Source: a virus (taxonomy: Duplodnaviria > Heunggongvirae > Uroviricota > Caudoviricetes). Taken from it: a stretch of DNA of 32,306 bases. How positions within the stretch are numbered: position 1 is the first letter of the stretch; each line of letters begins with the position of its first letter. Below, piece by piece: positions 21,315-32,306 of this stretch. The DNA is taken from positions 1-32,306 of the IMG/VR virus record IMGVR_UViG_2802429237_000004; one strand, given 5' to 3'. The notes beneath the pieces are model-generated. The model saw nothing but the letters and a program-made list of their open reading frames with translations. It did not search any database and was not told where the DNA came from. Made by a program: the position numbers and the translations under genes.

Positions 21315-22346
21315 CTATCTTTTTATTGCTCGTAGAGTAGTCATTAAATTCTCCCCATAAGGGGTTAAGGTCCAATATGTACCCTTGTCTTTTACACTTC
21401 TATTTCTTTCACTTTGGACCATAAGCCCTAGAGCTCGGAATTGTACTTTGATTGTCTGGACATCAGAACTATCCATACGAATAAACTTTATATGCATATT
21501 TTTAAAATCATCATCCGACCTCAACCCTGCCTCAACAATTTCATAGATGGAAGCGTTGATCAACGTTTTTAATCTATCATCGGAAATTTCATCAATCATA
21601 TAGGGAGAAATATAGGAAAATAATGAATTCCAACTTATCTGAGAGGTCCACTCATACTCTGAACCATCAGATGTCCACTCTGTAGGAGAAGCATGGAAGC
21701 TACATTTAAAAGTAAATAAATCGTCTCCTTGTGCAAGATCCTCAGTCCCTTTCGGTGCAGTTGTGGTATTCTTACTTAATTGATTTTCAAGTTCCTCAAT
21801 AGTCCTCTTCAACCCAAGAATTTCTTTTGCTGAACTCTCACTAGTAACTAAATCTCCACGAACCCATCCTACAGCAGGATGATCTTTAATAAGCCTAATC
21901 AAACTTCTACTGACTTGGCTTCCTAAGTCCGCAGGAGTTTCCCAGAATCGGCAAAGTTTCTTTTTAACAAGCTCTTCAAATGCTTCTAGCTTTTCTTTTC
22001 CTTGAGGAGATGGCTCACATCGCTGGGATGGTAAAAGACCTTTATTTTTGTGCAAAAAACCAATTACTGGCTTTCCTGATTCAACAGCGTAACGATACTC
22101 CATCTCAGTATAACTTATCCCATCAGGCCCTAAGGAACCGTAACGCCCCGCAAGGATTACAATGTAATAATCACTATCATCAATTATTTTCTTTATTAAG
22201 CTCCATTGATCACTATTAGTAGCAGGAAACAACTCCATACCAGCAGGTATACAATCCAGCTCTAAAAGAGCCTGCATGACCTCTTGACGTTCAGTTTCCA
22301 GGTCTGAGTATGTTGAACTAACAAAAACTTGATACCGCTTGTCCAA
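21315..22346 (-). CDS. AT-rich cargo gene: protein with DUF4062-like N-terminal module and unknown C-terminal domain (candidate defence/abortive-infection effector)
   Basis: 343-aa ORF; N-terminus YQVFVSSTYSDLETERQEVMQALLELDCIPAGMELFPA...DYYIVILAGRYGS matches my recollection of the DUF4062 signature; in-frame start is TTG preceded by GAGGGA at good spacing (no upstream in-frame ATG; the next ATG would cut the conserved motif); flanked by terminator hairpins. Confidence 0.6.
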   Translation of the reverse strand: MDKRYQVFVSSTYSDLETERQEVMQALLELDCIPAGMELFPATNSDQWSLIKKIIDDSDYYIVILAGRYGSLGPDGISYTEMEYRYAVESGKPVIGFLHKNKGLLPSQRCEPSPQGKEKLEAFEELVKKKLCRFWETPADLGSQVSRSLIRLIKDHPAVGWVRGDLVTSESSAKEILGLKRTIEELENQLSKNTTTAPKGTEDLAQGDDLFTFKCSFHASPTEWTSDGSEYEWTSQISWNSLFSYISPYMIDEISDDRLKTLINASIYEIVEAGLRSDDDFKNMHIKFIRMDSSDVQTIKVQFRALGLMVQSERNRSVKDKGTYWTLTPYGENLMTTLRAIKR

Positions 22347-22414
22347 ACCGCATCCCTCATGATTATTACTTTAAACAATGTAATATTTTTTACTCCATAT
22401 TTAATTTGCGCGCA

Positions 22415-22433
22415 ATCGTATCCCCGCCACGCC
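22415..22433 (-). other. cos-like cohesive-end site
   Basis: Minus-strand GGCGTGGCGGGGATACGAT; the first 13 nt match the 19-nt cohesive end of P2/186 as I recall it (GGCG[A/T]GGCGGGGAAAGCA[C/T]); lies between the SOS operon terminator and the cargo gene. Confidence 0.45.
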
Positions 22434-22478
22434 TGCCCGCTTTATGTAGTGGTTTTCATGCACCTGCATAATCTACGC

Positions 22479-22502
22479 AAAAGCCCGCCAGTTCTGGCGG
22501 GC
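22479..22502 (-). terminator. Rho-independent terminator ending the SOS (tum/dinI-like) operon
   Basis: gcccgcc-agttct-ggcgggc stem-loop followed on the minus strand by TTTT, about 135 nt downstream of the dinI-like stop. Confidence 0.55.
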
Positions 22503-22637
22503 CTTAGCAAAAACGATCCTCAAACGATCATGCGATCTCATGCGGCATAGACATGCACTACAGAGTTAACGCCTCGCAAGGGCTCGTTGTTCAACCTTGC
22601 TGACGCCAGAAGCAAGTTCAGACGCCAGCAACGTTTC

Positions 22638-22871
22638 TTAATGCAGCCAGCTGTCGTCTTCCCACACCTTCTGCATAATTTTCATCACTTGTTTTCTTTC
22701 TTCGTCCAGTTGCAGTCCGGTTAGTTCCACACCGTTAGAGCTACCTTTGCGAATGCGAATTACCGTTTTGGGATACAGGGGGCGCAGATTGCGGTAAAGC
22801 TCGGATTCAAGGGCGTCCAGGGTAGACTGGCTAATCTTCTGCTCTTTATCGATCATTATTTCAATGCGCAT
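22638..22871 (-). CDS. DinI-family protein (second gene of SOS operon)
   Basis: Start set at the internal MRIEIMIDKEQ, preceded by GAGGTG Shine-Dalgarno; 77 aa; N-terminus and C-terminal ...VWEDDSWLH resemble E. coli DinI and the C-terminal half of 186 Tum as I recall them. Confidence 0.6.
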   Translation of the reverse strand: MRIEIMIDKEQKISQSTLDALESELYRNLRPLYPKTVIRIRKGSSNGVELTGLQLDEERKQVMKIMQKVWEDDSWLH

Positions 22872-22881
22872 AAAAGTCACC

Positions 22882-23070
22882 TCAGCTGATGACATCCATT
22901 GAGCGGTTGTATTCGTGGGTTCTGATTTTTGCCATGAGTTCATCAGTCAATTCAGAAACCCACTGCAGAGCCAGCCCCTTCTCTTCATCACTACACTCAC
23001 TAGCCGCTACAAGCTTAAGAAAAAAATCAATGCGCTGGAGCTTCAAAGACTCCAAAAAATAGTCCTGCAT
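22882..23070 (-). CDS. Small SOS-operon protein (possibly the N-terminal part of a Tum-like antirepressor)
   Basis: Start set at the internal MQDYFLESL, which has a perfect AGGAGGAAAG Shine-Dalgarno directly upstream and lies 30-60 nt downstream of LexA boxes; the ORF-track start at 23172 would place the LexA boxes inside the coding sequence. Confidence 0.5.
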   Translation of the reverse strand: MQDYFLESLKLQRIDFFLKLVAASECSDEEKGLALQWVSELTDELMAKIRTHEYNRSMDVIS

Positions 23071-23098
23071 CTTTCCTCCTATGACACCACACGCAACA

Positions 23099-23129
23099 CT
23101 GTATGTATAACCACTGTTTATATTTACAG
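23099..23129. promoter_or_regulatory. Tandem LexA (SOS) boxes at the promoter of the tum/dinI-like operon
   Basis: Perfect CTG-N10-CAG with AT-rich core (ctgtttatatttacag, about 23114-23129) abutting an imperfect copy (ctgtatgtataaccac, about 23099-23114); LexA consensus is CTGTATATATATACAG. Confidence 0.6.
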
Positions 23130-23223
23130 CATATAATAATCTTACTGATGTAAAACGTTTTTTTACGTTCATCAGCCTGATATGCCTGGTATTATTAAGA
23201 GCACGAATTGTTAACCCGCGTAA

Positions 23224-25638
23224 TTAATACAGGTTCCGCCACTGATCATCTTCCTGCAAACGCTGGTTCCGATAGAAGATACGCAGGCCTGCTCCTGACG
23301 GAATACTGCCTCCGCGAAGGAGTAAATCGACCTCTTTCTCGCTGCCATCAAATCCTCTGGACTTCAGCTCATACACGAGCTGCAGTCGCTGATGGTCTGT
23401 AATTCGCTGTTTGTAGTCTTTACGCCGTTTCGGTTTCACCAGGCGTAACCTTGCTGCCAGTTCCCGGCGCTCTTTTTTGCTCATACTGTGCAGGTAATCG
23501 TGCAACTCCTTGTCATCCATGCTGGTAATGTCCGTTCTGGGGTCCCCATCAGCTGATTTATCTTTCTCCTGTTGGTTCAAATTTTCAGCAAGGGGACAGT
23601 TATTGCCACGAGTCCAAGGGGCGCAAGCGCCCTGGTCGGCTGCCGCCTCCTGAACGTCAACGGCCTTACGAACCATTTTCCACTTCACCGCATGAGTGCA
23701 GATCTTGCCCTCTGCAATGGGTGACCAGATGCCATAAATACGAATACCGTGATCGCCATATGCGGTCGGTTCTTCGTTGATTTCATAAGCAGTTCTGATG
23801 AGGTGATATTTGCGGGGAACCAGTACGCCGCCCTGCTTCATGATGTAGGTGGCAAAACAACCAACATCAGCAGCAGCCAGGATTGCATCAAGGCGCGGGT
23901 TATCCAGTACCGGCGCACCTGCTTTTTTGTCCCCCTGTTGCCTTGCCGCCTGACCAGCCAGCAATCGCAGTTCACGGTAAGCCTGACGCCCCGGAATGCC
24001 AAAGAAGCGGAATTGCTGAACACGATGCAGAGACGCCCAGGCATTAACGTATTCAGCGTTATCACGCAGGGATTTACCCGTTTCCTTGCTGATCTCGCCA
24101 GCCAGACCACGCCCGTCAATGTTCTTACTGATGTATTTCGCGATGTAGCTTGTTGGCGTACCTTTGCGCGGGTTTATCAGCTCAGACTTAAAGCGTGGTC
24201 CCGTGTTATTACCCAGCTCCTCGCGGTCTTCACGAATGGCAAACTTACGCAACAAAGCAGTAATGGTGCGGCGATCTTTTTTGCGCATAAAACACAACAG
24301 GTGCCAGTGAACTGTACCGTCATGATGCGGCTCAGCCACCCGCACGCCATACCAGCGCAATCCGGCTTTGTGCATCGCCTTACGAAATGCAGCAAACATG
24401 CCGACCAGATAATCACTGCTTTGTCTTACCGTCGTATTTGTCCAGGTCGGGTTGGGCCTGCCGTTATTTAGCGTGGAATGGAAACGTGACGGACAGGTGA
24501 TGGTGTAGAAAACGGCGCAGTCACCGCGCATTTCCGCGATAAGCTCCAGACCTTTAACACAGGCCATCATCTCATTGCGGCGATGCGCAGGGTTGCTGCT
24601 GCTGGCGTTTACCACATCCTCCATGTCCAGCATGTCGCCGTCTTCGTTCACCAGTTCATGAGAACGGAAAAACTCCAGCGACTTACGGCGCTGCTCACGT
24701 TTATGCATCACGGCTTCATAGCTGACATAGGGAGATGCTTTTTTGCTGACCAGGCAAACAGCACGCAACTGCTCTTCCCGCCATTCGCAACGCATCTTCC
24801 ATAATTTCCGGTACCACCAATCGGCGCACAACATACGCGCCAGCGAACCCGGAATGAGTTCATAGGGCACGGGTTTACGGCGGTTTCTTTTCCGGCGGAG
24901 TTGCTCAAACGCAGGCGGTATGACATCCAGTCGCAGGGTTTCTGCTGCCACCTTTTCCCATGTCTTGCGGATTTCTTCTGGCTTAACGTCATCGGTGGCA
25001 TACAAATCGCCACAAGCTGCATCAAGGCACATGCTCATATGCGCAGCAACAAGGGTGGACAGGCGTTTCACCTGATCCTGACTCATTTCAGGCAGGATCA
25101 GCAGGCCGTCCAGCCCTTCATGGCTTGCCATAAAGCGAAAAGAAGTGGATAGCTGACTGTCGCGTACATGCTCCAGCCGTTCCAGACATGGCTTAATCGT
25201 CTCACGCAAATAGCGGGAATAAGCCTTTGGCCTGCCAAGGCTGCTGAAGTATTCAATACGTTGCATCAGCGGCCTGCTGATATGGGAAGGCTGGGCGTTA
25301 ACGTCTGCCAGAATGACCATGTCCGGGTTAAAACGCTGCTGCTCATGCGCCAACTTTGCCCGGCTAATGAGCTTATCCTGCTCCATTTCGCGCTGGACAG
25401 GATCACGGGATTCATTAAAGAAATAACGCTCCCAAACCTGATCACTCAGTGCCTCGCGGCGCAGTTGTTCCTGCTCGTTATCGGCAGCGTACAGAGTGAT
25501 CAGGTTTGAAAGCGCAGAAACCGGCGCAACTTCCGCCGGGTCCAGATAAGGGTTAATAGCCTTTTTCGGGCTGTTCCATGAGAATGCTGCGGCGGCCTCG
25601 TTAAAGCCGCTGCAGTTGTTCATATCAGCATGGCTCAT
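23224..25638 (-). CDS. A: Rolling-circle replication initiator A
   Basis: 804-aa ORF with an HUH-type motif ([10 protein letters not shown]) and a Y-x-x-K-Y pair (SYIAKYISK); last gene of the early operon, start overlapping the Dam stop (ATGA). Confidence 0.8.
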
Positions 25639-29228: not shown

Positions 29229-30167
29229 ATGTCAACTCAAAAAAACACATTTCGCCATGTTAGCGAGAGTCTAAAAACTTCAATAATGCAAAACCGTGGG
29301 GGACAGAAAGTAATTGAGCGTATACTTGTTGCGTATGGTTTTACTTCGCGGCAAGCATTTTGCAATCATCTGGGTATCTCACAAAGCACGATGGCCAACA
29401 GGTATGCTCGTGACACATTTCCTGCTGACTGGGTGATAATTTGCAGTATAGAGACCGGCGCATCTATCGACTGGTTGGCATCGGGAATCAGCTGTGAATC
29501 ATCCTCAGTTTTATTAAATGATGAACGTTTAGCCCATACCAAATCTGATGACCTGGATAGAACTAATTCAATAGCCCAAAAGTTCCCAATCGAGACCAGC
29601 ATAAATCCTAATAAAGGAGGGAAGGCGGCAATTGATCGCTTAGTCGCAGCCTACGGCTTTAGCACCCGACAAGCCCTAGCAAACCATTTGCAGGTTTCAA
29701 AAAGCACTGTAGCAAACAGGTACTTACGAGACACGTTTCCTAGCGACTGGATCATTCAATGCGCTCTTGAAACAGGAACTTCATTACTCTGGCTCACAAA
29801 CGGCAATGGCCCCAAATTTATCGATAATTCCAGCTCTGTAGCCCAACTTAAACACCAAACAATCATTGACGGTAAATTACATGATGAAGGCTACTTAGCA
29901 TTTGACAAGACGCTTATACCTTCCGGATTGAAAAAACCTATTGGAGTTACCGCAGAAGGAAAAACCTTTATTGCAGATACAGAATATGATGATGTTTCAG
30001 ATGGTAGTTGGTTGATTGAGATTGAAGGTAAAGTAAGTTTAAGAAAATTAACAAGAATTCCAGTTGGAAAAGTAAAAATCACATCAGATACAACTGATTT
30101 TGTTTGTAAGCTTGAAGACATTACAACCATCGCAAAATGTTGTTGCGTTTTTTCAAAGGAAATTTAA
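29229..30167 (+). CDS. cI: CI-like immunity repressor with two tandem 186 CI-type N-terminal HTH domains
   Basis: 312-aa ORF; two consecutive segments (ERILVAYGFTSRQAFCNHLGISQSTMANRYARDTFPADWVIICSIETGASIDWLASG and DRLVAAYGFSTRQALANHLQVSKSTVANRYLRDTFPSDWIIQCALETGTSLLWLTNG) each resemble the 186 CI N-terminal DNA-binding domain; AT-rich C-terminal third; start codon choice uncertain (weak Shine-Dalgarno). Confidence 0.7.
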   Translation: MSTQKNTFRHVSESLKTSIMQNRGGQKVIERILVAYGFTSRQAFCNHLGISQSTMANRYARDTFPADWVIICSIETGASIDWLASGISCESSSVLLNDERLAHTKSDDLDRTNSIAQKFPIETSINPNKGGKAAIDRLVAAYGFSTRQALANHLQVSKSTVANRYLRDTFPSDWIIQCALETGTSLLWLTNGNGPKFIDNSSSVAQLKHQTIIDGKLHDEGYLAFDKTLIPSGLKKPIGVTAEGKTFIADTEYDDVSDGSWLIEIEGKVSLRKLTRIPVGKVKITSDTTDFVCKLEDITTIAKCCCVFSKEI

Positions 30168-30177
30168 AGGAACATAC

Positions 30178-31167
30178 ATGAATTCTGAAAATAAAAAAAA
30201 TGAAAACAACGATTATGTTGAAAAAGTTAATTGCGAATGGAAAGATCTTTATAATATTTTAAATGAAAATCTGCATAAATTTAATGAAAATGAACGCGCC
30301 TACTTAGTCGACTTATTAAAAAAAGGTGAACTTGATAAATTCAGAGAATACTACTGGAAATTAGCCCAGCAAGAAAAAATGAACTACAGCGATAAAGCTG
30401 GAGATATTTTTATTAATGAAAACAATAAGATAGATGAATTAATAAAAGAACAAAAACATCTTCGAGAGATAATGCGATCATATACCAAACGTTTATTGGA
30501 GGCTGAAGAGTCCAAAGCTACGTTACATCTTCGGAATGAGAATTTAGAAAAACTAAATTCTGAAAAAGAAGCAATTATTGAGCAAGCCGTATCTAGAATA
30601 AAGCAACTTGAAGCATCTAACAGCGAATTACAAAGCCGAGTACAACAAGAAAGGATTGATGAGAAAATACCAGGATATGTCGATAGCGTTAAAAGTGAAC
30701 TAAGTTCAGATGACTTATATTTCATTAAAATGTCGCAAGTATGGGCTTTTACTGGCTGCATTTTCGGGCTACTTGCTGTATGTGCATCATTTTATACACT
30801 CTACGCCACAATTGACTTCAACAATGTTAAAGGCTTTGAGCTATTTTATTTTTTCACACGTGGTTTAATTGGTATTTCCATTCTTTCTTGGCTAGCATAT
30901 ATTTGCCTTGGCAACTCTAAAAAATATACCCATGAATCAATTTTGAGAAAAGATAGAAGACATGCACTAATGTTTGGGCAAGTATTCCTGCAAATTTATG
31001 GTTCCACGTCAACAAAAGAAGATGCTGTGTTAGTCTTTAAAGACTGGAATATGTCTGGTAACTCTGCATTTTCTGACAAAACAGAACTCCCTCCGGGAAT
31101 CCAATCTTTATGGGATTCAACCAAAGAAAAACTAAAGCCAAGTACCGCTGAAAAAGCACAGGAGTGA
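30178..31167 (+). CDS. AT-rich cargo gene: coiled-coil protein with two C-terminal TM helices
   Basis: Start set at the ATG with AAGGA Shine-Dalgarno (MNSENKKNENN...); about 330 aa; a roughly 200-aa Glu/Lys/Leu/Asn-rich heptad region, then two hydrophobic helices (VWAFTGCIFGLLAVCASFYTLYATI, LFYFFTRGLIGISILSWLAYICLG) and a 65-aa tail; very AT-rich; followed by its own terminator. Confidence 0.6.
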   Translation: MNSENKKNENNDYVEKVNCEWKDLYNILNENLHKFNENERAYLVDLLKKGELDKFREYYWKLAQQEKMNYSDKAGDIFINENNKIDELIKEQKHLREIMRSYTKRLLEAEESKATLHLRNENLEKLNSEKEAIIEQAVSRIKQLEASNSELQSRVQQERIDEKIPGYVDSVKSELSSDDLYFIKMSQVWAFTGCIFGLLAVCASFYTLYATIDFNNVKGFELFYFFTRGLIGISILSWLAYICLGNSKKYTHESILRKDRRHALMFGQVFLQIYGSTSTKEDAVLVFKDWNMSGNSAFSDKTELPPGIQSLWDSTKEKLKPSTAEKAQE

Positions 31168-31229
31168 GGCCAATGTTTATTTCACCCTAAACATACATTG
31201 ATAACTGTTTAAATATACAGTTAAATTTA

Positions 31230-31253
31230 GCCCTCTGATATGAGGGCTTTTTT
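31230..31253 (+). terminator. Rho-independent terminator between the cargo gene and int
   Basis: gccctc-tgatat-gagggc stem followed by TTTTTT that runs straight into the int ATG. Confidence 0.6.
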
Positions 31254-32306
31254 ATGGCAGTACGAAAACTCACCACAGGAAAATGGCTTTGCGAATGTTA
31301 CCCTGCCGGACGTAGTGGACGTCGTGTGCGTAAACAATTCGCCACCAAAGGCGAAGCTCTGGCTTTTGAGCGTCACACGATGGAAGAAACCGAAGCAAAA
31401 CCCTGGCTGGGTGAATCAGTGGATCGTCGAACACTGAAAGACGTGGTTGAGATATGGTTCAAACTACATGGTAAATCTCTGACAGCTGGGCAGCATGTCT
31501 ATGACAAATTGCTGTTGATGGTTGACGCTCTGGGAAATCCCATTGCAACCGATCTCACCTCTAAAATGTTTGCCCACTATCGAGATAAACGCCTGACAGG
31601 AGAGATCTACTTCAGCGAAAAATGGAAGAAAGGAGCAAGCCCGGTCACCATTAACCTGGAACAAAGCTATCTTAGTAGTGTTTTTAGCGAACTATCCCGC
31701 CTGGGCGAATGGTCGTATCCGAACCCACTGGAGAACATGCGAAAATTCACCATCGCAGAAAAAGAGATGGCATGGCTTACCCATGAGCAGATTGTTGAAT
31801 TACTGGCTGATTGCAAACGTCAGGACCCAATTCTGGCACTGGTAGTTAAGATATGCTTAAGCACAGGCGCACGCTGGCGTGAAGCTGTAAATCTTACCCG
31901 CTCACAGGTGACCAAATACCGAATTACCTTTGTAAGAACGAAGGGGAAGAAAAACAGAAGCATCCCTATCAGTAAAGAACTTTACGAAGAGATCATGGCG
32001 CTTGATGGGTTCAATTTCTTCACAGACTGCTATTTTCAATTTTTATCTGTGATGGGAAAAACGTCTATCGTGCTCCCTCGCGGTCAACTGACACACGTTC
32101 TGCGCCATACGTTTGCGGCGCATTTCATGATGTCGGGTGGAAATATCCTTGCTTTGCAAAAAATCCTCGGACATCACGACATAAAAATGACTATGCGTTA
32201 CGCACATCTGGCACCGGATCATCTGGAAACGGCGCTCCGTTTCAATCCTCTGGCAACGCTGCCAAGTGGCGACAAAGTGGCGGCAGCGGTTGGCATTACC
32301 CCGTAA
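31254..32306 (+). CDS. int: Tyrosine integrase (P2/186 family)
   Basis: 350-aa ORF; N-terminus MAVRKLTTGKWLCECYPAGRSGRRVRKQFATKGEALAFE and C-terminal catalytic region (..HVLRHTFAAH...HHDIKMTMRYAHL) typical of P2-family integrases; stop codon is the last three bases of the window. Confidence 0.9.
   Translation: MAVRKLTTGKWLCECYPAGRSGRRVRKQFATKGEALAFERHTMEETEAKPWLGESVDRRTLKDVVEIWFKLHGKSLTAGQHVYDKLLLMVDALGNPIATDLTSKMFAHYRDKRLTGEIYFSEKWKKGASPVTINLEQSYLSSVFSELSRLGEWSYPNPLENMRKFTIAEKEMAWLTHEQIVELLADCKRQDPILALVVKICLSTGARWREAVNLTRSQVTKYRITFVRTKGKKNRSIPISKELYEEIMALDGFNFFTDCYFQFLSVMGKTSIVLPRGQLTHVLRHTFAAHFMMSGGNILALQKILGHHDIKMTMRYAHLAPDHLETALRFNPLATLPSGDKVAAAVGITP

Follow-up and report, generated by a model that had tools for sequence, protein, structure and literature searches.

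The two-gene tumA-tumB operon of an apparently intact Fels-2-like prophage, a probable SOS-induction locus with a rare -10 variant

Layout of the tum operon and its LexA boxes

The window, meaning the whole stretch of 32,306 nucleotides that was analysed, apparently holds an intact P2-family prophage with a 186-type lysis-lysogeny switch. Its late genes are large open ORFs, about 95% identical to those of Klebsiella phages. A P2-type replication gene A (gpA-like ORF of 804 aa; minus strand, 23224-25638) lies directly upstream of the tum operon, which runs from 23154 to 22479 immediately downstream of gene A and on the same strand. The order of gene A, LexA-box promoter and tum is common to the window, 186, PSP3 and Fels-2. 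The conservation of the locus was assessed in the window and 82 relatives (80 IMG/VR contigs, Fels-2 and one E. coli phage), giving 83 copies.

The first gene of the operon, of the tumA type (minus strand, 22882..23070; ATG at 23070, stop codon TGA at 22882), encodes a 62-aa protein that is predicted to be an antirepressor of 186-family CI. Its Shine-Dalgarno sequence, AGGAGG (minus strand, 23075..23080), stands five bases before the ATG and is kept in the relatives, in agreement with the strong ribosome-binding site that an earlier note on this DNA had ascribed to the small ORF. The second gene, tumB (minus strand, 22638..22871), encodes a 77-aa DinI-family protein. As the same note had read it, the DinI-family ORF (Pfam DinI, E 6.6e-23) follows the small ORF after 10 nt, the gap between the tumA stop and the tumB start being formed by the junction TGAGGTGACTTTTATG. 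The Shine-Dalgarno sequence of tumB, GAGGTG (minus strand, 22878..22883), overlaps the tumA stop codon, and this arrangement suggests translational coupling of the two genes.

Directly 3' of tumB lies a stem-loop without a U tract (minus strand, 22599..22629), recognized by RNAalifold covariation and in a single-sequence fold. In the RNAalifold comparison of 20 sequence variants, 7 of its 10 pairs stay paired through changes on both sides. The hairpin is found after tumB in PSP3 too and is absent from Fels-2. Rfam gave no match in the window at the gathering threshold and none in 22300-23300 at E up to 1, and the hairpin is therefore not a described RNA family. It is followed by a canonical intrinsic terminator, GCCCGCCAGAACTGGCGGGCTTTT (GCCCGCCAGAACTGGCGGGC plus TTTT; minus strand, 22479..22502), identified from sequence and fold, and then by a separately started DUF4062 gene. 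This terminator, which was missed by a scan tool because its T run is only four bases long, is the one expected after the DinI-family ORF and is the probable end of the operon.

A perfect CTG-N10-CAG LexA box and an abutting imperfect one had been described before the small ORF, and both are present on the minus strand. Box 1, TGCTGTAAATATAAACAGTG (23112..23131), has its CTG-N10-CAG core at 23114-23129 and overlaps the predicted -10 hexamer. Box 2, CAGTGGTTATACATACAGTG (23097..23116), has a core with one G in common with box 1. Taken by itself, the CTG-N10-CAG pattern is unspecific, with 20 matches in the window against 9.4 expected, and a 20-nt weight matrix, whose scores are approximate, was therefore built from 28 E. 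coli sites. The leave-one-out scores of the 28 known sites had a median of 19.6 and a minimum of 7.6, and the best score per shuffle in 30 shuffles of the window had a median of 10.3 and a maximum of 18.2. Box 1, at 23.1 bits, lies above the median of the known sites and above all 30 shuffles, so that the matrix-based check proposed in the earlier note came out in favour of a LexA site. Box 2, at 15.4 bits, is within the range of the known sites but below the shuffle maximum when taken alone. Almost all of the 82 relatives retain the GTGG and CAG ends of this box, and its centre varies freely. As predicted sites, box 1 is convincing by itself and box 2 only in context.

The same two-box geometry, with one shared base and a near-identical sequence, is present in the colicin operator of ColE1 upstream of cea, as confirmed in the ColE1 record. 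The cores are CTGTAAATATAAACAG and GTGGTTATACATACAG in the window and CTGTATATAAAACCAG and GTGGTTATATGTACAG in ColE1. Box 2 of Fels-2 is identical to box 2 of ColE1 at 20 of 20 positions, whereas that of the window differs at four. The ColE1 operator drives a plasmid toxin gene, not a prophage antirepressor. In colicin operons, dual overlapping LexA boxes are associated with tight repression and delayed induction. Phages 186 and PSP3 have a single consensus LexA box each, in contrast to the colicin-like double box of the Fels-2 type, to which the window belongs.

The tum promoter and a rare variant of its -10 hexamer

The predicted -35 hexamer of the tum promoter, TTTACA (minus strand, 23149..23154), was read from the sequence and coincides in position with the annotated p95 -35 of 186. 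After a 17-nt spacer comes the predicted -10 hexamer, TGCTGT (minus strand, 23126..23131), at the position of the TACTGT that the 186 record annotates as the -10 of p95, overlapping the LexA box. The predicted promoter of the window is TTTACA-17-TGCTGT and that of 186 is TTCACA-18-TACTGT, the window having a G for the conserved A at -10 position 2. The -10 assignment is a prediction transferred from the annotated p95 hexamer. A promoter scan of 22300-23400 found none, and the rules of the scan would also reject the mapped 186 promoter.

Every relative whose upstream region is intact keeps the -35 hexamer; in one contig the sequence there is unrelated. The -10 hexamer is TACTGT in 80 of the 82 relatives; one has the same G as the window, and one has unrelated upstream sequence. 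When the exact 34-mer was searched, the form with G at 23130 was found in 6 IMG/VR contigs, compared with at least 120 for the form with A. Over 821 nt, at least 12 E. coli chromosomes match the window at 99.8% identity. H103, the E. coli copy that was compared base by base, has just two differences from the window, one at 23130 and one at 23097, the latter being a common polymorphism at the last base of LexA box 2. The change at 23130 hardly alters the LexA score of box 1 (23.1 bits with G versus 24.3 bits with A), and little effect on LexA binding is expected. On a rough -10 matrix, the score falls from +2.6 bits for TACTGT to -2.4 bits for TGCTGT, or by about 5 bits.

Among the bases of sigma-70 promoters, the A at -10 position 2 has the highest conservation and the most critical mechanistic role. 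The operon may be intact while this copy is a promoter-down allele (A to G at 23130), which would leave the prophage poorly or not SOS-inducible though the family is inducible. The rarity of the G, the near identity of the closest E. coli copies outside that base and the common polymorphism, the annotation of the homologous TACTGT as a -10 in 186 and the loss of matrix score all favour this reading. A precedent is also available: in S. Typhimurium D23580, induction of Gifsy-1 is silenced by one SNP in the -10 of the dinI-gfoA promoter (PMC5322425). Against it, the -10 assignment is by analogy, and six different haplotypes, with tumA and tumB intact, carry the G allele, which is not obviously tied to decay. 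The frequency of the G, around 1%, is like that of other rare operator variants. TACTGT is itself a weak -10, and the promoter may rely on other features. A promoter-down copy is a realistic possibility, though held to be the less probable outcome. Recurrent selection for the G allele was also considered in view of the six haplotypes, yet other rare operator variants have frequencies similar to its roughly 1%, and no claim is made.

The rare TGCTGT allele may weaken SOS induction in this copy. Because of the G at the predicted -10 position 2, the inducibility of this prophage is less certain than the earlier note assumed. Its term UV-inducible applies by homology, and the prediction holds less firmly here than for the family as a whole. 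If this lysogen proves non-inducible, the -10 variant would be a simple explanation.

TumA, TumB and the CI repressor

The coding signatures of the two genes were examined in 125 distinct haplotypes. For tumA, distinct synonymous and nonsynonymous variant codons numbered 43:21 in frame, compared with 10:54 and 6:56 in the other two frames. The corresponding numbers for tumB were 66:49 in frame and 21:96 and 13:104 off frame. By this codon evidence, tumA and tumB are under purifying selection, and in their annotated frames only.

TumB matches Pfam DinI (PF06183) over profile positions 1-63 of 63, with 81.3 bits against a cut-off of 24.2. It has the features of the DinI family: a length of about 80 aa, an acidic C-terminal helix and the W-E-D-x-x-W motif. 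The alignments suggested earlier for this ORF bore out its assignment, since it aligns with E. coli DinI (1GHH) over residues 1-75 with an E value of 2.7e-6 and is 41% identical to residues 71-145 of 186 Tum. Identity to PSP3 TumB is 78%. The score of TumB against the NCBIfam equivalog for host DinI, 42.7, is below the cut-off of 111, indicating that it is a phage paralogue and not host DinI. In alignment, the first residue of TumB falls on an internal GTG start annotated in 186 tum, whose product is described in the 186 record as a "truncated Tum" that "modulates SOS induction." The fused 186 gene therefore also yields the DinI-like module separately.

TumA is 98.4% identical to STM2728 of Fels-2, a gene at the same position. 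Pfam and NCBIfam contained no family matching the small ORF, and BLASTP detected no similarity of it to 186 Tum or PSP3 TumA, nor any between PSP3 TumA and 186 Tum; profiles were therefore needed to establish the link. TumA matched phrog_698 (3.6e-38), phrog_8554 (2.4e-8) and phrog_1993 (2.2e-3). Residues 1-70 of 186 Tum matched the same families in another order of strength, phrog_1993 (2e-23), phrog_8554 (3.3e-12) and phrog_698 (6.7e-6), at the same positions, 7-44. PSP3 TumA is a member of phrog_1993 (2.7e-32). When TumA and the 186-type Tum N-terminal families were aligned with hhalign, columns 4-43 were paired with columns 4-43 at a P value of 4.7e-4 and a probability of just 33%, which is attributable to the shallowness of both alignments. 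The similarity to 186 Tum foreseen for the small ORF thus holds at the profile level and fails in BLASTP.

AlphaFold2 modelled TumA confidently (pLDDT 89.8) as a plain hairpin of two helices. A profile search of the PDB gave no match for TumA, and a Foldseek search of the model against BFVD gave none at E up to 0.001, so that the case for homology gains nothing from the structure. The profile links, the conserved position and the operon context together indicate that the small ORF is very probably a divergent TumA. No direct report of antirepressor activity was found for a Fels-2-type protein; the activity is reported for 186 Tum only and, as a personal communication, for PSP3 TumA (PMC3121763).

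The presumed target of TumA is a 186-family CI repressor of 312 aa (plus strand, 29229..30167), which has two HTH domains and no peptidase domain. In the Pfam search it matched Phage_CI_repr twice (5.3e-55) and Phage_CI_C (1.5e-30), with no S24 peptidase match. It is 35% identical to 186 CI and has the same double-HTH layout as PSP3 CI. The switch of the window also contains a Cox/Apl-like gene and a CII (Phage_CP76) gene. Because this CI cannot cleave itself, an antirepressor is needed for SOS induction, which fits the 186 model.

The small ORF might instead not be an antirepressor, with the DinI-like gene as the only SOS module, like host dinI, and with induction by another route or none. 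The absence of pairwise similarity to Tum or TumA, the label of hypothetical protein in databases, the occurrence of the same TumA beside very different CI proteins and the generic helical hairpin with no informative structural match are all compatible with this. The position of the ORF, however, is collinear with tumA and with the N-terminus of Tum, several independent links exist at the profile level, and purifying selection on the ORF is strong. The lack of a self-cleavage domain in CI also argues against it, as an antirepressor is then needed, and the only other LexA site in the window above every shuffle is upstream of int. The lethality of a lexA null in Salmonella is, moreover, traced to Fels-2 in the title of Bunny 2002, a reference in PMC3121763. 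An operon without an antirepressor is therefore improbable.

The locus is read, with good confidence, as the SOS-induction operon, in the two-gene tumA-tumB form, of an apparently intact Fels-2-like prophage (Felsduovirus-type, P2-family). The LexA-box scores, the Tum and DinI homologies and the CI/Apl/CII switch support the LexA-controlled tum/dinI-like operon of a 186-type prophage that the earlier note had proposed. Anatomy, LexA-box scores, homologies, conservation, coding signatures and the 186-type switch were observed here, and LexA binding, TumA as antirepressor and the role of TumB are predicted from work on 186, PSP3 and Fels-2. In the undamaged cell, two LexA dimers on the overlapping boxes would cover the -10 hexamer and the start region, downstream of gene A. 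Upon DNA damage, RecA would become active, LexA would cleave itself and a bicistronic tumA-tumB mRNA would be made, with transcription stopping at the conserved hairpin and the canonical terminator. TumA (62 aa, two-helix) would bind the 186-family CI and block its operator binding, and the early lytic promoter would fire. TumB, as a DinI homologue, would bind RecA filaments and tune the SOS signal.

In 71 related contigs compared with the window, TumA is 92-100% identical, the HTH domain of CI 62-88% and the C-terminal domain of CI 26-48%, the loci having been picked by TumA or promoter identity. Near-identical TumA with such different CI C-terminal domains is unexpected for a highly specific protein pair and counts against the tumA-tumB explanation, as do TGCTGT in place of TACTGT at the predicted -10 and a link of TumA to Tum that is at the profile level only, with the low hhalign probability. 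If all these prophages are inducible, TumA would be expected to act on a conserved feature of CI, and the DNA-binding domain is the obvious candidate. Such a target fits an antirepressor that "prevents operator binding." The near-invariance of TumA was also considered as evidence for a generic target and was downgraded, since gpA is also about 98% identical and the loci were picked by TumA or promoter identity.

The strongest LexA box of the window lies in a conserved, predicted promoter directly upstream of int. This predicted int promoter (31198-31226) consists of TTGATA, the LexA box as the 17-nt spacer, and TTAAAT. Transcription of int would begin within the left arm of a terminator-like hairpin, and the same hairpin would otherwise block read-through from the cI side and mask the ribosome-binding site of int.

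A wider scheme, in which LexA controls both the antirepressor operon and the int promoter, one TumA serves heteroimmune CI proteins through their HTH domains, with cross-induction, and the tum copy of the window is a promoter-down form, is tentative and less likely than not. If it is true, HTH targeting by a near-invariant TumA would allow cross-induction between co-resident prophages.

Gene number, related systems and significance

The earlier note had left two possibilities, two genes or a frameshifted tum, of which the first is upheld. The first ORF is 62 aa long in 83 of 83 copies, and the frame offset between the ORFs is +1 in all of them. The junction TGAGGTGACTTTTATG is found in 80 of the 83 copies, with a one- or two-base variant in the other 3, and tumB is intact at 77 aa in 81. 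The 62-nt overlap reported between the ORFs 22882-23172 and 22638-22943 is correct as a mechanical longest-ORF call and is an artefact as far as the genes are concerned, because the ATG at 23172 precedes the promoter and the LexA boxes and the ATG at 22943 lies inside tumA, in the other frame.

A tum pseudogene, broken by a frameshift or in some other way, could be suggested by the sum of 62 and 77 aa, which approaches the 146-aa length of 186 Tum, by the different frames of the ORFs (offset 199 nt) and by the tumB frame being open for 24 codons before its ATG, but this is scarcely credible given that the split and the 10-nt junction with its own Shine-Dalgarno sequence recur across the copies, that both ORFs are under purifying selection in their annotated frames only, that the PSP3 and Fels-2 records annotate two genes, that homologues of the 186 Tum N-terminus commonly occur as stand-alone proteins of 63-78 aa, and that 24 open codons in a row would arise by chance with a probability of about 0.3. 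Programmed +1 frameshifting to a fused Tum was also rejected; the junction is without a slippery or prfB-like site, the alternative frame is without coding constraint, and the 24-codon open stretch is expected by chance. On comparative grounds, the locus is two genes and not a frameshifted tum.

The split tumA-tumB arrangement is already known. Fels-2 and PSP3 were reported to have tum split in two by Lemire 2011 (PMC3121763), citing Bunny 2002 and a personal communication of G. E. Christie, and the PSP3 record annotates tumA, described as "UV induction of prophage," together with tumB. It is thus the standard Fels-2/PSP3 form and not peculiar to the window.

Fels-2 of Salmonella LT2 is the closest counterpart. 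At its STM2728/STM2726.1 locus, which likewise comes after gene A, the promoter, the double LexA box and the 10-nt junction are as in the window. Fels-2 differs in having TACTGT at the -10 and in being without the post-tumB hairpin and terminator. A 732-nt gene directly follows instead, matching 186 orf97 in length and position. The CI of Fels-2 is about 43% identical to that of the window and is of a different immunity type.

PSP3 also has two genes, a small protein followed by a DinI homologue, with a double-HTH CI and the same post-tumB element as the window. Its tumA and tumB share one frame, with a stop codon and 3 nt between them, whereas those of the window are offset by +1. PSP3 TumA falls into a different PHROG family (phrog_1993), and its relationship to the TumA of the window is seen at the profile level only.

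In 186, the tum gene of the p95 SOS operon likewise has a LexA-repressed promoter after gene A, and encodes an N-terminal antirepressor and a C-terminal DinI-like module, with a 186-family CI as the target. The 186 gene differs in being one fused ORF of 146 aa, with orf97 downstream on the same transcript. The Gifsy dinI-gfoA/gftA-irsA operon resembles that of the window in being LexA controlled and in combining a DinI homologue with a small antirepressor (PMC3121763). It differs in that dinI comes first, the order being reversed, and in belonging to a lambdoid phage with an unrelated repressor family.

The locus was found in 1144 of 5426 complete E. coli genomes (about 21%), in 733 of them with a coverage of at least 80%, and a close relative of TumA is encoded in more than 590 IMG/VR contigs. 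PGAP labels tumA as "hypothetical protein" and tumB as "DinI-like family protein." In RefSeq and phage records, tumA is called "hypothetical protein" or bears the erroneous name "levan regulatory protein."

The main value of the finding is for annotation, in that a 62-aa gene of this prophage is very probably an antirepressor coupling the prophage to the SOS response. Bench work might be worthwhile only for the -10 variant and the predicted LexA-controlled int promoter. The prophage type is present in about a fifth of the complete E. coli genomes and also in many Klebsiella and Salmonella. Its SOS coupling bears on prophage induction by antibiotics such as fluoroquinolones. Fels-2-like prophages carry variable cargo genes, and induction could therefore mobilise this cargo.

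Predicted LexA box and promoter upstream of int

The highest-scoring LexA box of the window, AACTGTTTAAATATACAGTT (31203-31222), reached 26.1 bits with an approximate weight matrix. It is part of a plus-strand region (31198-31256) and occupies the 17-nt spacer of a good predicted promoter, TTGATA-N17-TTAAAT, immediately upstream of the int start codon (ATG at 31254). A terminator-like hairpin, GCCCTC-tgatat-GAGGGC-TTTTTT, is located between the -10 element and this ATG. The predicted start site of the promoter falls within the left arm of the hairpin, and the right arm contains the likely Shine-Dalgarno sequence of int. LexA box, promoter and hairpin were all kept in 39 related contigs, in which the commonest promoter form was TTGACA-16-TAAAAT with a LexA box of 23.6 bits. 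Across these contigs, the hairpin stem showed one compensatory change and one G-U change. The conserved arrangement upstream of int suggests a LexA-repressed int promoter that would bypass a terminator. One literature search turned up no account of such a promoter.

A plus-strand ORF of 355 aa (30100-31167; phrog_2628) is inserted between cI and int. It gave a weak Pfam match of the coiled-coil type and no family in PADLOC or NCBIfam, and its C-terminal part appears hydrophobic when judged by eye. The ORF was missing from phage records that have the flanking int region in common. A LexA-like site of 15.3 bits by weight matrix lies inside it (30352-30371).

Elements flanking the tum operon

Directly after tumB, the DinI-family gene of the presumably LexA-repressed tum operon, lies a minus-strand stem-loop with a trailing motif (22585-22634). 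The stem-loop has compensatory changes at 7 of its 10 pairs among 20 variants. The conserved motif GGTTGAACAACGAG comes next. The stem-loop lacks a U tract and matched nothing in Rfam. PSP3 has it too, and Fels-2 does not. Candidate explanations are a partial terminator comparable to t95a of coliphage 186, an mRNA 3' stabilizer or the border of the cargo hotspot.

A minus-strand gene flanked by the portal gene on one side and the tum terminator on the other encodes a DUF4062 protein of 343 aa (21315-22346; Pfam, 6.9e-29; phrog_15411). Its position is the variable cargo slot known from P2-like phages. The gene has a TTG start and a Shine-Dalgarno sequence of its own, and its product had no PADLOC match. 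In relatives, the same slot is filled by different genes (orf97-like, SieB-family and Ymh-domain).

At the other end of the operon, the second base of the predicted tum -10 hexamer (position 23130) carries a rare change from A to G on the minus strand. The G allele is present on six different haplotypes in IMG/VR, and this position is one of only two differences over 821 nt between the window and the closest E. coli copies.

Tum forms and their CI partners

Many close homologues (70-98% identical) of the 186 Tum N-terminal half occur as free-standing proteins with a length of 63-91 aa, and some of these bear the name "Tum protein." Within the 186 sequence type, too, split forms are therefore found alongside fused ones.

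The CI repressor of the window (29229-30167, plus strand), the presumed target of the predicted antirepressor TumA, carries the Phage_CI_repr HTH domain as a tandem duplication, at residues about 28-86 and about 133-196, before a single C-terminal domain. PSP3 CI shares this layout; in 186 CI the HTH domain is single. The best hit from the phage collection was only 54.5% identical, and the immunity type is therefore uncommon. In IMG/VR relatives, near-identical TumA proteins (92-100%) are partnered by CI proteins that share 62-88% identity with the window CI in the HTH domain and only 26-48% in the C-terminal domain, at loci chosen by TumA or promoter identity and at which the replication protein gpA is as conserved as TumA. 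These pairings hint that one antirepressor serves many immunity types.
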